The translations under genes and the position numbers were made by a program. Below, piece by piece: positions 45,544 to 51,496 of a stretch of DNA of 64,000 bases. This DNA is from an uncultured Candidatus Saccharibacteria bacterium. GTDB lineage: Bacteria > Patescibacteriota > Saccharimonadia > CAILAD01 > JADZBC01. Position 1 is the stretch's first letter. Each line of letters starts with the position of its first letter. The notes under the pieces are model-generated. The model saw only the letters and a list, made by a program, of their open reading frames with translations, did not search any database and was not told the origin of the DNA. The stretch spans positions 2,685-66,684 of the forward strand of contig CAYTBW010000004.1 in the NCBI GenBank assembly GCA_964436255.1, given 5' to 3'.

Positions 45544-46230
45544 CTACTTCTTATAACGGCTCAGGGCATCAGCTGCTGCAGCTTGCTGCCCAGCCTGCTT
45601 ACTCGCTCCATTCCCCTTACCGTATTCTTTTGCCCCCAAAAAAACGCCAACAGTGAATACCTTGTCATGATCCGGTCCAACCTCTGCAAGCACCTCGTAG
45701 TGCGGAGTAATGCCGTCTCTTTCCTGGGCAATCTCCTGGAACTTACTCTTTGCATCGATATACGCGCCAGACTTAAGGATGTCCGGCAGTCCAACAATAA
45801 GCTCTCGGTCAATGAAGGCCGCGGCAACGTCATACCCTTGGTCAATGTACATTGCCCCAATAATTGCCTCGATCATGTTCGCCAGGAGTGCAGTGCGGGC
45901 ACGGCCGCCGCTCTTAACTTCGCCATGCGACATGAGTAGGTATTGTCCTAGCTCCAGCCTTTCCGCCACAGAAGCCAGTGACTCTGTCTTGACCAAGGCG
46001 CTGCGCCAGCTCGTTAGTTCACCCTCTGGATTTTCATAATTCCTATAAAGGTGGTCAGTAACCACAAGCTCGAGCACGGCATCCCCCAAGAACTCAAGTC
46101 GTTCGTTATGCTCTAGGCCGGCCTTAGGATGCTCATTAATATAACTACGGTGAATAAAAGCGCGCTTAATCAGCTCTGGCTGCTTAAAGCTCGTTGCAAG
46201 CACATCTTCGATTTTCTTTTGTTCAAACAT
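45544..46230 (-). CDS. rnc: ribonuclease III
   Basis: 228 aa; RNase III signature ERLEFLGDAVL; C-terminal dsRBD. Confidence 0.9.
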   Translation of the reverse strand: MFEQKKIEDVLATSFKQPELIKRAFIHRSYINEHPKAGLEHNERLEFLGDAVLELVVTDHLYRNYENPEGELTSWRSALVKTESLASVAERLELGQYLLMSHGEVKSGGRARTALLANMIEAIIGAMYIDQGYDVAAAFIDRELIVGLPDILKSGAYIDAKSKFQEIAQERDGITPHYEVLAEVGPDHDKVFTVGVFLGAKEYGKGNGASKQAGQQAAAADALSRYKK

Positions 46231-46729
46231 TGAGGCCTGTCTCTCTTAGCTTCTTCACACTAATGTCTAGTAATAGTTTTGTACCTTTGTATTCTATCAG
46301 AGCGCGGGCCTGATCGGCAGGGAACCACTTAAGATCCTGCACCCAATCGGTATCCTCTAGGACTAAAGGCTCTTCTGGGTCGAGCGCTTCCATTAAGAAT
46401 ATGAAGGTGGTCATGAATATAAGCTTACCTTCACGACGGTAAAAGAAGTGCACCTTGTCGAGCTTATCAACAATCTTAAGCTTAGCAAGCCCGGTCTCTT
46501 CTTGCATTTCCCGTAGGGCAGTTTGTTCAAGCGTCTCCCCCGACTCCACATGCCCTTTAGGTATTGTCCAACGAGAACGATGGTCCTGCATCAATAGAAA
46601 TTCAATCTTGCCATCACCGAGCGTGCGGTAAGCTATTCCCCCCGCAGTATACTCAGGTATCGCCTTAGCGCGGCTGTCGCCCTTACGCTGGCTTCTCAGC
46701 TTGCTTTTGTTTGTCTTCTTCTGGTTCAT
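46223..46729 (-). CDS. NUDIX hydrolase
   Basis: Nudix box GHVESGETLEQTALREMQEETG; start taken at MNQKK (track ORF longer, overlaps nusB). Confidence 0.7.
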   Translation of the reverse strand: MNQKKTNKSKLRSQRKGDSRAKAIPEYTAGGIAYRTLGDGKIEFLLMQDHRSRWTIPKGHVESGETLEQTALREMQEETGLAKLKIVDKLDKVHFFYRREGKLIFMTTFIFLMEALDPEEPLVLEDTDWVQDLKWFPADQARALIEYKGTKLLLDISVKKLRETGLNV

Positions 46730-47156
46730 AAAAATCGCTTTGTCGGTAAATCGTGCCCAATACGCCGTTAATAAACTTACTAGAGTTGTCTCCACCAAAT
46801 GACTTAGCAAGCTCAACGGCTTCATTGATCACAACCTTTGGCGGTACGTCTCGCTTGATTGCTAGTTCATACAAGGCTAAGCGCAGAATTGCTCGATCAA
46901 CCTTTGCAATCTGGTCAATCGGCCACTCCGGGGCTGCCGGAACAATAAGGGCGTCCTCCTTGTCTTGGTTTTCTATCGTTCCGCGGACCAAATCGTGCAC
47001 AAAGTCCTTATCCTCGATGCTCTCTCCGTAGATTTCGAGATTGCGCGCTACGATCTCGTCGACATCAGTCTTCAGCTCAGGTAGTGAGCTACGAAAATCA
47101 TGCTCGTACAGGCTCTGAAGGGCAACTATGCGACCGAGGTGACGGTTTGATGCCAC
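46683..47156 (-). CDS. nusB: transcription antitermination factor NusB
   Basis: NusB fold (RIVALQSLYE...), probable GTG start at 47156 just after rpmF. Confidence 0.7.
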   Translation of the reverse strand: MASNRHLGRIVALQSLYEHDFRSSLPELKTDVDEIVARNLEIYGESIEDKDFVHDLVRGTIENQDKEDALIVPAAPEWPIDQIAKVDRAILRLALYELAIKRDVPPKVVINEAVELAKSFGGDNSSKFINGVLGTIYRQSDFYEPEEDKQKQAEKPA

Positions 47157-48252: not shown

Positions 48253-50670
48253 CTAGACTACGATATTAACAAGTTTATTGGGCACAACAATTATCTTATT
48301 CGGCTCACCCTCGTACCAAGCCTTATCTGAGGCTAGCTCCCGAGCTGCTGCTTCTAGAGATTCATTTGTACTACCAGCTGCTGCCATGAATTCTCCACGT
48401 AATTTACCATTCACCTGTACTACGATGGTCACTTCATCTTCTTTGATCATCTCGTTATCGTACTTTGGCCATTCCTGCAGGTGAACACTCTCCTCCTGTC
48501 CAAGCTGCTGCCATAATTCTTCGGCCAAGTGCGGGGTGAAAGGTGCTAAAACTAAGACAAACTGGCCCAAGAATTCTCTCCACACTACTGGAGATACAGA
48601 GCCCTCTCTCTTTACACTAGCAGCGACTTTTACAAGCTCCATCATCGCAGCGATGGCGGTGTTAAACTTAATGCCGCGTAGATCTGATGTTACCTTGCGA
48701 ATAGTCTTATGTAGCTCACGTACAAGTAGCGCCTCCTGTGCGGCCCTTATATCCGCTGGTTCATAGCCTTGATAGAGCTCCCACACCTTGCCAATGAATC
48801 GATACGTACCCTCAAATCTCTGTGGATCCCATGGCCCACCTTCTTCGTAAGGGCCCATGAACATAAGGTAAAGCCGCACCGCGTCAGCACCGTATTTATC
48901 GATATACTCTAACGGATCCACAACATTGCCTTTTCGTTTGCTCATTTTGTCCCCGTCAGAACCAAGAATCATGCCTTGATTGATAAGCTTCTTGAATGGT
49001 TCGTTGAAGTCGATAAGCCCTTCACCATGAAGGAATTTTGTGAAGAATCGAGCATAGAGCAGATGAAGAATGGCATGCTCAATACCGCCCATGTAATTGT
49101 CGACGGGCAACCATTTCTTGACTGCTTCTGGGTCAAACGGACCCTCCGCATAATCTGGGTTCGGATAACGGAGGAAGTACCAGCTAGAGTCCACGAAGGT
49201 ATCCATCGTGTCGGTCTCCCGACGAGCGTCGCCACCGCAGGTGGGACACGGCACGGGCATGTAGTCAGGGTGGCTTACCAGTGGCGATTGGCCTGATTCA
49301 TCAAACTTCTGACCGAGTGGCAACCCGACTGGCAGCTGATCCTCGGGCACAGGAACGACGCCGCAAGCATCACAGTAAATAATCGGAATGGGGGCGCCCC
49401 AATAGCGTTGTCGAGAAATGAGCCAATCACGAATCTTATACTGCACCCTGGTCTCGCCGCTGCCCTCTGATTCGAGTTTCTCAATGATTACCTTCTTCGC
49501 ATCGGCAACGTTCATACCGTCAAGGATTTCAGAGCCAACGAGAAGGCCGTCCCCTGTATAGGCAGATTCCTCGATATTGCCGCCCGATATTACTTCTTTT
49601 ATCTCAATCCCATACTTCGTGGCAAACTCGTAGTCGCGCTGGTCGTGAGCCGGTACAGCCATGATGGCCCCGGTGCCGTAGCCCATTAACACATAGTCGG
49701 CAATCCAGATTGGCAGCTTCTCCCCATTCACAGGATTAGTAGCATACGAGCCAGTGAATACACCCGTCTTGTCCTTGTTCTCTAAGCGGTCCACATCTGT
49801 CTTGGCCCCTGCTGCCTCTACGTACTTTTCGACCTCGGATCGCTGGCCGTCACCGATAAGGCCCTCTACTAGCTCATGCTCTGGTGCAAGAACCAGGAAG
49901 GTTGCGCCATATAGCGTATCTGGTCGAGTGGTGTAGACCTCCAGATTATTACCGTTAGCCAACGAGAATCTTACCTGAGCGCCCTCGCTACGACCTATCC
50001 AGTTTCGTTGCATTGTCTTAACTCGCTCAGGCCAATCTAAACCTTCCATATCATTAAGCAACGCGTCGGCGTAATCAGTGATTTTGAAATACCATTGTTT
50101 CAACTTTTTACGCTCGACTTTCGTGCCACAACGCTCACACTCGCCATGAATAACCTGCTCATTAGCAAGCGCCGTCATGTCCTTAGGGCACCAGTTTACC
50201 AAGCCGTCCTTTTGATAAGCCTTACCAGCCTTGAGCATGCGCAAGAATAGCCATTGCGTCCAGCGATAGTATTCTGGCTTTGAAGTGTCTACTTCTTTAT
50301 CTAAATCGTACATACCACCAAGTCGGAAATATTGCTTACGAAAACGAGATACATTCTCATCGGTCCACACTTCGGCGGGGACACCTTTTTTAATTGCTGC
50401 GTTCTCTGCTGGCAATCCAAATGAATCGTATCCAAGTGGCTGCAGCACGTCTTTGCCGTGCATGCGATTAAACCGCCCTATTGTGTCTGCAGGACCAAAG
50501 TTGTACCAATGACCAATATGCAAATCACCTGATGGGTATGGAAACATCACCAGGTTATAAAACTTGTCTTTTGGACTATCGACAGTTTTATTAAGGCCGG
50601 TCTCGGCCCATACTTTCTGCCATTTTGCTTCGATCTCTTGGGAATTATACTTGGGGGTGTCGTTCTTCAT
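48253..50670 (-). CDS. leuS: leucine--tRNA ligase
   Basis: 805 aa; HIGH (HIGHWYNF), KMSKS (KMSKRKGN), CP1 editing domain. Confidence 0.95.
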   Translation of the reverse strand: MKNDTPKYNSQEIEAKWQKVWAETGLNKTVDSPKDKFYNLVMFPYPSGDLHIGHWYNFGPADTIGRFNRMHGKDVLQPLGYDSFGLPAENAAIKKGVPAEVWTDENVSRFRKQYFRLGGMYDLDKEVDTSKPEYYRWTQWLFLRMLKAGKAYQKDGLVNWCPKDMTALANEQVIHGECERCGTKVERKKLKQWYFKITDYADALLNDMEGLDWPERVKTMQRNWIGRSEGAQVRFSLANGNNLEVYTTRPDTLYGATFLVLAPEHELVEGLIGDGQRSEVEKYVEAAGAKTDVDRLENKDKTGVFTGSYATNPVNGEKLPIWIADYVLMGYGTGAIMAVPAHDQRDYEFATKYGIEIKEVISGGNIEESAYTGDGLLVGSEILDGMNVADAKKVIIEKLESEGSGETRVQYKIRDWLISRQRYWGAPIPIIYCDACGVVPVPEDQLPVGLPLGQKFDESGQSPLVSHPDYMPVPCPTCGGDARRETDTMDTFVDSSWYFLRYPNPDYAEGPFDPEAVKKWLPVDNYMGGIEHAILHLLYARFFTKFLHGEGLIDFNEPFKKLINQGMILGSDGDKMSKRKGNVVDPLEYIDKYGADAVRLYLMFMGPYEEGGPWDPQRFEGTYRFIGKVWELYQGYEPADIRAAQEALLVRELHKTIRKVTSDLRGIKFNTAIAAMMELVKVAASVKREGSVSPVVWREFLGQFVLVLAPFTPHLAEELWQQLGQEESVHLQEWPKYDNEMIKEDEVTIVVQVNGKLRGEFMAAAGSTNESLEAAARELASDKAWYEGEPNKIIVVPNKLVNIVV

Positions 50671-50725
50671 AACGTCTATTGTATCCTAATCTGGTTTGTT
50701 TAGTAAAAGCCGAGGGCAGTAAACC

Positions 50726-50750
50726 AAAAGCCGCCCTGCGGCGGCTTTTG
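50726..50750 (-). terminator. attenuator/terminator hairpin upstream of leuS (also ends the C39-like gene transcript)
   Basis: Minus-strand RNA GCCGCC-GCAG-GGCGGC followed by UUUUGGUUU, about 55 nt upstream of leuS ATG. Confidence 0.6.
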
Positions 50751-50772
50751 GAAAATTACGAGTAACAAAAAC

Positions 50773-50829
50773 CTACCGCGGTGCGCAGAGCAAGAGAGCT
50801 AGTAGGTTGAGTTGTCGCTGAACTTTCAT
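50773..50829 (-). CDS. candidate leucine-rich leader peptide (18 aa) of a leuS attenuator
   Basis: ATG AAA GTT CAG CGA CAA CTC AAC CTA CTA GCT CTC TTG CTC TGC GCA CCG CGG TAG = MKVQRQLNLLALLLCAPR; 6 Leu in 8 residues; preceded by TTGACT-17-TAGACT (+50859-50864 / +50836-50841, minus sense) placing the TSS at the AUG (leaderless). Confidence 0.45.
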   Translation of the reverse strand: MKVQRQLNLLALLLCAPR

Positions 50830-50860
50830 GAGGAAAGTCTAACAATCAAATATATGATAG

Positions 50861-51496
50861 TCAAGATTTAGCTTTGACAAAAATCGCCTGGAGCTTGAAG
50901 TACTCCCAAAAGTACTCAGTACTCACACTCTTTTGTTCTCCGGGCGGAAGAAGCGGATCGACAACTTCTACCGAAGTTCCTGTGTATCCGCTGACCACGA
51001 CAAAGTGACCTATTTCGTTTTCACTAAACCCAGGCTTTACACTTACTATCACAGGTAGGCCATGGTCAAGTGAGCCCTTAATACAATGCCAAGCGCGGTC
51101 CCTTAAAGAACCTTGCTGGCTATTCTCGCTTTCAAGCTGCGAGAGAAAAGCGGAGACTTGCACTTCGTCATAATTCTCATTATCGATAAAGTAGCTCGGG
51201 TCTTGAGATGGAGCCAGCCAGTTTCTACGCCAAGACACAAGGCCGTGATGCTTCAAGGTGCTGACTAACGCAGAATGCTTCCACCCGTATTCGACTATCC
51301 TGCCGCCGAACCCTTCCATTTCATCCACGATAAGTGCTAGGTCAAAGCTATAATCACCGTGTTGAACAAATACATAATCCAAAACCATATTCACAGAAGC
51401 AGGTCCGCACATTCTACGCCGCTGATTTTCTGGTATAGGCGAATCAGGGTCTAACTGCCACACATGGGCAACATCGAGATGCTTCTCGTTCAGCAT
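50861..51496 (-). CDS. peptidase C39-like domain protein
   Basis: CGPASVNMVL catalytic Cys motif, His further downstream; start chosen at MLNEKH to abut murF. Confidence 0.55.
   Translation of the reverse strand: MLNEKHLDVAHVWQLDPDSPIPENQRRRMCGPASVNMVLDYVFVQHGDYSFDLALIVDEMEGFGGRIVEYGWKHSALVSTLKHHGLVSWRRNWLAPSQDPSYFIDNENYDEVQVSAFLSQLESENSQQGSLRDRAWHCIKGSLDHGLPVIVSVKPGFSENEIGHFVVVSGYTGTSVEVVDPLLPPGEQKSVSTEYFWEYFKLQAIFVKAKS

Follow-up and report, generated by a model that had tools for sequence, protein, structure and literature searches.

The 64,000-nucleotide (nt) stretch of DNA analyzed here at its full length (contig CAYTBW010000004.1, hereafter the window) carries on its minus strand a gene with a Peptidase_C39_2 domain, followed by a short Leu-rich reading frame, an intrinsic terminator and leuS, the gene for leucyl-tRNA synthetase (LeuRS, or LeuS). 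A previous reading, made from the sequence alone, had interpreted the segment between both genes as a leader-peptide attenuator of leuS, and this leader unit, composed of a promoter, a small open reading frame (sORF) and a terminator, is the subject of the present work. The closest homologs of the LeuRS are metagenomic proteins with 82-88% identity, and the next tier, at ~55-65%, includes proteins from Candidatus Saccharibacteria; judging from these homologs, the window belongs to the Saccharibacteria (TM7), within the Candidate Phyla Radiation (CPR). The loci compared with it (designated by L numbers) represent 14 related Saccharibacteria lineages; the shared gene order is MscL - Mur ligase - C39_2 - leuS - YceD - L32 - NusB - NUDIX - RNase III. 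A scan of metagenome contigs with a C39_2 alignment yielded only four loci, and two of them, L089 and L090, proved informative. The features of the window locus, all on the minus strand, are the following:

50861 to 51496, minus strand: Peptidase_C39_2 gene, upstream of the leader (domain E-value 6.7e-14)
50859 to 50864, minus strand: −35 hexamer TTGACT of promoter P1, which overlaps the C39_2 stop codon (TGA); relatives have TTGAC(T/A) over the C39 stop
50836 to 50844, minus strand: extended −10 element TGT-TAGACT of P1 (hexamer 50841-50836), with a 17-nt spacer from the −35 hexamer and 6 nt before the sORF ATG
50773 to 50829, minus strand: leader open reading frame (ORF) of 18 codons plus stop, encoding MKVQRQLNLLALLLCAPR; homologous peptides in nine lineages
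50788 to 50811, minus strand: putative regulatory Leu stretch, codons 7-14 (CUC AAC CUA CUA GCU CUC UUG CUC)
50801 to 50808, minus strand: segment 1, AACCUACU (Asn-Leu-Leu codons), pairing with GGUAGGUU of segment 2 in minimum free energy (MFE) and centroid folds
50766 to 50779, minus strand: segment 2, GCGGUAGGUUUUUG, across the UAG stop; 5' strand of the predicted antiterminator
50738 to 50750, minus strand: segment 3, CAAAAGCCGCCGC, common to the antiterminator and the terminator 5' arm
50721 to 50751, minus strand: intrinsic terminator, a perfect stem of 12 base pairs (bp), CCAAAAGCCGCC/GGCGGCUUUUGG, with loop GCAG and a U tail
50678 to 50707, minus strand: promoter-like site P2, TTTACT(50707)-18-TACAAT(50678), whose −10 box ends 7 nt before the leuS ATG
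48253 to 50670, minus strand: leuS, encoding a LeuRS of 805 amino acids (aa), with its ATG at 50670 and without a Shine-Dalgarno (SD) sequence

The hexamers and the spacing of P1 were found as the sequence-only reading had given them (TTGACT-17-TAGACT, at the C39 stop), with a score of 9/12 in the consensus scan for promoters and terminators run on the window, and the motif TGn-TA(G/A)ACT is kept in L081, L082 and L085. The same reading had placed the transcription start on the AUG; a start 7 nt after the −10 hexamer would indeed fall on the A of the AUG at 50829, and the predicted transcript, from which the leader is predicted to be translated, would thus be leaderless. No SD precedes the leader ORF, and this also applies to the other related units, in which −10 boxes lie 5-9 nt before the ATG. 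The 18-codon frame, at 50829-50773, contains the six Leu in eight residues that had been described, with the same codons (CUC, CUA, CUA, CUC, UUG and CUC). Among the 725 sORFs counted in the six frames of the window (ATG-started, 10-40 codons), it is the only one that reaches at least six Leu in eight residues, and a scan for the combination of promoter, sORF and terminator recovered it as the only unit in the 64-kb window, with one match in a negative control consisting of 1.25 Mb of leuS loci from unrelated phyla (LeuRS ~50% identical, among the matches listed). The idea that the leader might rely on rare codons was discarded, as its Leu codons are not rare in the genome (CUA 13%, CUC 18% and UUG 20% of Leu codons).

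As for the terminator, which the consensus scan also recovered, the hairpin GCCGCC-GCAG-GGCGGC and the subsequent UUUUGGUUU noticed earlier are present, although the stem is longer, with 12 bp (arms 50751-50740 and 50735-50724, U tail UUU at 50723-50721), and lies ~50 nt, instead of ~55 nt, before the leuS ATG. Transcripts of the C39_2 gene would also meet this terminator. An alternative hairpin, GCCGCAGGGCGG/CUGCCCUCGGC followed by UUUU (window 50708-50745, minus strand; −17.8 kcal/mol), competes with the terminator 3' arm and is found in the window, L081 and L082. The automatic finder picked it as the main terminator, but it was set aside because it is not conserved in L085/86, and this first result was replaced by hand-set arms for the duplex tests. 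A bidirectional terminator, suggested by the symmetry of the A and T runs, was dropped, as there is no convergent gene. Finally, the consensus scan revealed an element missed by the sequence-only reading: the second promoter-like site, P2, between the hairpin and the leuS ATG.

Alternative structures of the leader RNA

Folded without constraints, the window leader forms a long 5' helix, in which AACCUACU pairs with GGUAGGUU near the stop codon, and then the terminator. A longer anti-antiterminator helix, which joins nt 3-29 of the transcript with nt 53-79, has the pairing of segments 1 and 2 as its core. The predicted antiterminator pairs GCGGU-A-GGUUUUUG (G51-G64; window 50779-50766) with CAAAAGCCGCCGC (C80-C92; window 50750-50738), forming 13 bp with one bulged A and a free energy of −16.0 kcal/mol in the nascent RNA, and its 5' strand overlaps the UAG stop. 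It is not the pairing first suggested, CUGCGC with CGCAG: CUGCG and CGCAG are complementary, yet they pair in no MFE, centroid or masked fold.

A ribosome was simulated as a generous footprint, reaching from the 5' end to 12 nt beyond the A-site codon, in which no nucleotide was allowed to pair. The readout was how often upstream sequence captures the terminator 5' arm in a nascent RNA that still lacks the 3' arm. In the window, the probability that this arm is held by the antiterminator was 0.21 with no ribosome, 0.90 with the A site at Leu7-13, 0.66 at Leu14 and 0.02 at the stop codon. The fold comparison that the sequence-only reading had proposed as a check thus favored it in silico: terminator and antiterminator are mutually exclusive, a Leu-stalled ribosome permits antitermination and a terminating ribosome prevents it. 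This contrast was seen in 12 of 12 units, belonging to seven sequence classes, and each of these related units has a terminator. In L087, L088, L090 and L094, the antiterminator dominates even the full-length equilibrium when the ribosome is on early Leu codons, and the terminator does so once the ribosome is at late codons or at the stop.

The complementarity behind the antiterminator was also compared with shuffled sequences. The window duplex has −11.8 kcal/mol, versus −8.1 +/- 2.0 kcal/mol for dinucleotide shuffles, with a fraction of 0.06 of the shuffles reaching the duplex value; the fraction is 0.01-0.06 per unit, and the Fisher combination gives 1.6e-4 over five classes that are related and non-independent. 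Between classes, a change in the terminator arm is accompanied by a change in its antiterminator partner (GGUUUUUG/CAAAAGCC in the window, GGCGGUU/AACCGCC in L087 and GACGGUU/AACCGUC in L088). In an alignment of the class with 22-24 codons (five sequences), the 7-bp antiterminator core is 100% paired, with one compensatory change from GC to AU, whereas slid controls reach 14-60%; the terminator is likewise 100% paired.

On the basis of these folds, a model can be proposed in which the element is, with somewhat better than even confidence on our part, a ribosome-mediated leader-peptide transcription attenuator sensing charged tRNA-Leu. In this model, P1 would start transcription on the AUG of the 18-codon leader ORF. 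In the absence of a ribosome, segment 1 would pair with segment 2, near the stop, and the 12-bp terminator would form; it would also form when a ribosome quickly arrives at the UAG and covers segment 2. In contrast, a ribosome that stalls within the run of six Leu codons would melt the 1:2 helix and leave segment 2 free to pair with the terminator 5' arm (13 bp), so that RNA polymerase would read through. In the window genome, this predicted response to Leu would send the read-through into leuS, 50 nt downstream, in a feedback resembling that of pheST. In this reading, the leader is a new family of a known kind of attenuator, with no new mechanism.

The leader unit in related lineages

The leaderless promoter, the Leu-rich sORF and the terminator recur in nine of the 14 lineages, with LeuS identity down to 64%. 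In L081, L082 and L085/86 (LeuS identity of 87, 85 and 82%), the whole 190-nt intergenic region aligns, with a mean identity of 88%, and the leader ORF stays in frame across a 3-nt indel, encoding the peptides MKVQQQLNLAVLLLRAPR, MKIQKLNLLALLLRSSR and MKIQQLNLLGLLLPASR, respectively. Within the window clade, the intergenic region is 75-100% identical, with 75-88% for the sORF and 90-100% for the stretch from P2 to the ATG, while leuS is saturated at its 4-fold degenerate sites (29-42% identical). The terminator is 97-100% identical among the window, L081 and L082; pairs that include L085, where an insertion lies just past the terminator, give 71-74%. The fact that the leader region is conserved while the 4-fold sites of leuS are saturated points to a strong purifying selection on the former.

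In relatives with 63-65% LeuS identity, the unit is retained with different nucleotides. The leader peptide is MQRTLLNLLGLLLPQAVR(V/I)RVR in L087 and L090, MKRNILNLLGLLLPKTVGISVR in L088, MKRNILNLLVLLLPKTVGISLR in L094 and MIKLNLNLQLNLLLPRAVGVTVSE in L098/99. The motif LNLL[AGV]LLL[PRC] is found in L081, L082, L085/86, L087, L088, L090 and L094, and the Leu motif of L098/99 is LNLNLQLNLLLP. All carriers present a terminator and a TTGAC(A/T) hexamer with a 17-nt spacer to a −10 box, which precedes the start codon by 5-9 nt; in the relatives with 63-65% LeuS identity, the hexamer is TTGACA and the distance to the ATG is 6-9 nt. Every Leu column shows two to four different Leu codons, including switches between CUN and UUR, with a single non-Leu exception (Leu to Ala). 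Since Leu is kept through this synonymous codon turnover, selection acts on the encoded Leu, and ribosomes most likely translate the ORF. Conservation also covers non-Leu residues (Asn, Pro), whose codons lie in paired RNA segments.

In addition to the Leu leader, L088, L094 and L098 contain a second unit with the same architecture, whose peptides (MKPRSYQNSIINIIVKNSLLRRLV, MNLSAHNNIIIIDRGITR and MQTVKSIVAAIIILLVPSGRFDVA) are of the Ile or mixed branched-chain type. These paralogous units, each made of a leaderless sORF and a terminator, are located as follows:

L088, 1358 to 1432: run NSIINIIV
L094, 1211 to 1267: run NNIIII
L098/L099, 1288 to 1362: run AAIIILLV

Each of them precedes an ORF of 94-105 aa with no Pfam family, and none was found in the window. 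The exchange of the repeated amino acid while the RNA design is kept fits what is seen in attenuator families, and would be unexpected for a conserved micropeptide. From these comparisons, the leader belongs, as far as its sequence relationships tell, to a Saccharibacteria-specific family of paralogous leaders of Leu type and of Ile/branched-chain type.

The Leu leader of the deeper relatives has a different neighbor than that of the window. In L087, L088, L090, L094 and L098, the sequence downstream of the leader and its terminator contains another hairpin, then a strong SD and an ORF of 50-65 aa, characterized by QAESAV and a C-terminal PDGxxPYA:

L087, 2734 to 2895: small ORF
L088, 2286 to 2456: small ORF
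L090, 5369 to the end: small ORF
L094, 3167 to 3331: small ORF
L098, 2335 to 2532: small ORF

A Pfam search of these small ORFs downstream of the leaders in the relatives returned no family, and a tblastn search with them against the window gave no match. Because the small ORF recurs after the leader in deeper relatives, it is the conserved partner of the Leu leader; it also appears to be the ancestral one, lost by the window clade. In the window, ~15 nt remain that are similar to the 5' half of the hairpin located past the terminator in L087, and we tentatively propose that a deletion brought the leader next to P2 and leuS in the window clade.

Just past the small ORF, a conserved structured element is found, formed by GAGCACUG, a variable long hairpin and C(G/A)CGCUC (L087 2919-2961; L088 2745-2795; L094 3402-3452; L098 2552-2592). 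It is located between the small ORF and the leuS promoter in L087, L088 and L094, and before an opposite-strand PDT/ACT gene in L098. RNAalifold assigns to it 18 pairs, seven of them with compensatory changes. The element had no Rfam match and is not present in the window.

The possible link to leuS and competing explanations

Several findings weigh against leuS as the target of the attenuator. P2 sits between the terminator and the leuS ATG and is invariant in the window clade. A TATAAT, TACAAT or TAAAAT box is found 6-8 nt before the leuS ATG in L084, L087, L089, L093, L094 and L095, and it persists in L084, L089, L093 and L095 in spite of their lack of a leader. The leader is absent from these four loci and from L096/97; in L084, which shares 84% LeuS identity with the window, the gap between C39 and leuS is 28 nt. 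In L087, L088, L090 and L094, the SD-led small ORF, and not leuS, directly follows the leader, and in L098 the opposite-strand PDT/ACT gene separates the leader cassette from leuS. Given that P2 is conserved and shows a leaderless signature without SD, leuS most likely has its own leaderless mRNA, and a leadered read-through mRNA would expose the leuS AUG internally without SD, so it may be poorly translated. A dependence of leuS on read-through is not borne out by the sequence, with P2 lying downstream of the terminator. Other points concern the attenuator as such. The 12-bp terminator of the window clade wins every equilibrium fold (P ~1.0), and antitermination must consequently rely on kinetic trapping, which is likewise assumed for the trp attenuator. 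The complementarity per unit is modestly above that of shuffles (fraction ~0.05), and the covariation comes from five sequences and one compensatory event, with 48 of 500 shuffles reaching the score. Furthermore, the conserved Asn and Pro could indicate a functional peptide, and all functional claims derive from sequence, comparison and folding.

On the other hand, nothing but P2 lies between the terminator and leuS, and read-through can only enter leuS. A dual-promoter arrangement for leuS is, on the sequence, possible, and a second input into leuS similar to that of pheST is plausible given the constrained Leu codons, antiterminator and terminator. A meaningful control of leuS by the attenuator, with the predicted effect on the level of LeuRS, is nevertheless a tentative proposal that we find somewhat doubtful. 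Therefore, from the leuS attenuation advanced by the sequence-only reading, the attenuator behavior and the conservation of the Leu codons hold, whereas the link to leuS is weakened by the promoter of this gene, by the other ORF that follows the leader in relatives and by the case of L084. The same reading had recommended searching for the peptide upstream of leuS in relatives, which retrieved the Leu leader in nine lineages, though in the deeper ones before the small SD-led ORF. It had also named two observations that would speak against it: a lack of conservation of the peptide, which is in fact conserved, and a separate leuS promoter downstream of the hairpin, which was found.

Some observations on leuS and its surroundings can be added. 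In these genomes, many genes (leuS, Ddl, a 61-aa gene in L082) lack an SD and carry a TAnnnT box 6-8 nt ahead of the ATG, and others (MscL, L32, a hydrolase) have strong SDs, which suggests a mixture of leaderless and SD-led initiation in these Saccharibacteria. In L088 (2897-3003), the leuS promoter and start (TACAAT-atagat-ATGAATAA) appear duplicated; the upstream copy opens a leaderless upstream ORF of 34 codons, whose stop overlaps the real leuS ATG (UAAUG), an ATG provided with an SD-like GGTGA. The C39_2 protein of L084 (1856-2529) is only 53% identical to that of the window, versus 84% for LeuS, a disparity that is suggestive of recombination or replacement near the C39-leuS junction. 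In a sister clade (proteins P0007, P0008, P0011, P0024-P0030 and others), LeuRS and NUDIX (PF00293) are part of a single polypeptide of 947-1087 aa. In L098 (3501-6359), the NUDIX match falls among the LeuRS domains, before the second tRNA-synt_1 match and the anticodon-binding domain. The NUDIX of the window is a separate gene (about 46223-46825), a few genes downstream of leuS.

Three explanations compete with that of a Leu-sensing attenuator. The hairpin lies 110 nt past the C39 stop in an operon that has no other terminator, and leuS has its own promoter, as would be expected for a plain terminator of the C39 operon with a Leu-rich frame arisen by chance in the spacer. However, conservation down to 64% LeuS identity, with synonymous turnover, extends to the ORF, its frame (across the 3-nt indel), its Leu codons and its promoter, only one of the 725 window sORFs is so Leu-rich, and in L088, L094 and L098 the unit does not adjoin C39; this explanation, already largely refuted by the comparative data, seems to us very improbable. 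A second proposal is that of an independent small gene, encoding a functional hydrophobic micropeptide from its own leaderless promoter and with no role in leuS regulation. It would account for the conservation beyond Leu (Asn and Pro/Arg positions; C-terminal PKTVGISVR / PQAVRVRVR in the 22-codon class), for the possession by the unit of both a promoter and a terminator, and for its persistence in the window clade after the loss of the small downstream ORF. Nonetheless, the hydrophobic stretch, of ~10 residues, is too short for a membrane span, the paralogs exchange Leu runs for Ile runs with no sequence motif kept, the conserved non-Leu codons fall in paired RNA segments, and every class shows complementarity between the terminator arm and the 3' end of the coding sequence, a property needless in a plain peptide gene. 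We consequently deem a micropeptide gene quite unlikely.

It is also conceivable that the attenuator became an orphan or acquired a dual function. After the loss of the small ORF, it would have been retained to terminate the MscL-Mur ligase-C39 operon, or its terminated leader RNA of ~105 nt, or the peptide, would act in trans like rnTrpL/peTrpL in Sinorhizobium, with leuS being transcribed from P2 only. In favor of this notion are the conservation of P2 downstream of the terminator, the absence from the window of the small ORF of L087, L088, L090, L094 and L098, the apparent 5' half of the L087 post-terminator hairpin that the window retains, and the folding of untranslated transcripts arriving from upstream into the terminator form (P 0.96). 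There is, moreover, a reported precedent of trans-acting attenuator RNAs (PMC6614838, PMC7298713). Against it, the Leu codons and the antiterminator are under strong purifying selection in the window clade, and a mere terminator needs neither; no trans target is known, and read-through must enter leuS, as nothing stands in between. An orphan or dual-function element is, in our opinion, unlikely.

Known attenuators and biological meaning

The attenuator proposed here can be placed among several known systems. With the leader of the enterobacterial leu operon (leuL; Rfam Leu_leader RF00512), which belongs to the trp/his/ilv class, it shares a short ORF with a run of Leu codons, an intrinsic terminator and a four-segment RNA with 1:2, 2:3 and 3:4 alternatives, in which the ribosome at the stop codon blocks the antiterminator. 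It differs from leuL in that there is no sequence or covariance-model similarity, in that the window leader ORF is probably leaderless, and in that leuL serves a biosynthetic operon, while here the downstream gene is that of an aminoacyl-tRNA synthetase or, in relatives, a small ORF. To our knowledge, CPR bacteria are expected to be devoid of Leu biosynthesis. In the window, Rfam gave no match at the gathering threshold to Leu_leader RF00512, Leu/phe leader RF01743, T-box RF00230 or any other family; at E<=10, the region 50400-51000 produced no T-box and only noise (<=17.7 bits), and no match was obtained at E<=1 in L087, L088, L090 and L094.

The pheST operon of E. coli (pheM leader) also combines a leader rich in the cognate amino acid with a terminator and an antiterminator before the gene of the cognate tRNA synthetase, and in Streptomyces, classical attenuators have been predicted before both leuS and trpS (Seliverstov et al. 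2005, PMC1262725), the former with a Leu leader before leuS, as in the window. Both cases correspond to other phyla and show no detectable homology, and they differ from the present one by the second, leaderless-type promoter before leuS and by the service that the leader gives to another gene in relatives. The sequence-only reading had considered a peptide attenuator at leuS noteworthy by reference to Gram-positive organisms; this framing needs correction, as the organism is Saccharibacteria/CPR-like and no typical Gram-positive, and leuS peptide attenuators had already been predicted in Streptomyces. Mycobacteria possess leaderless sORFs that sense amino acids, such as those of the Cys 'ribulon', which act on translation (Canestrari et al., 10.1101/834739). 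These are also leaderless, enriched in one amino acid, based on sensing by ribosome stalling and present as several paralogous units per genome, whereas in the window the canonical intrinsic terminator and the antiterminator point to transcription. Lastly, the leuS T-box of the Firmicutes (RF00230) has the same regulatory aim, since the charging of tRNA-Leu sets LeuRS by antitermination, but it does so by direct tRNA binding, and here the sensing would go through the ribosome.

No published ribosome-mediated attenuation in Saccharibacteria was found in the literature, and we know of none described for CPR/Patescibacteria in general. The present case contains a lesson for annotation, namely that a textbook-looking attenuator beside the gene of the cognate synthetase need not be the main control of this gene. 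Saccharibacteria are amino-acid-auxotrophic episymbionts. As a speculation to which we give a low probability, they might harbor a 'ribulon' of leaderless leaders of Leu and Ile type that sense tRNA charging and switch on small proteins encoded next to leuS (50-65 aa with QAESAV and PDGxxPYA, and 94-105 aa), a starvation module possibly directed at the host. In the window clade, a deletion would have rewired this module, and the Leu sensor would now either feed directly into leuS or work in trans through its peptide or terminated RNA. If the leader element proposed here is real, reduced-genome symbionts monitor the charging of Leu (and Ile) tRNAs by a classical ribosome switch placed on leaderless transcripts. 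The leader family also points to unannotated small proteins, whose expression would be tied to the amino-acid supply of the host.

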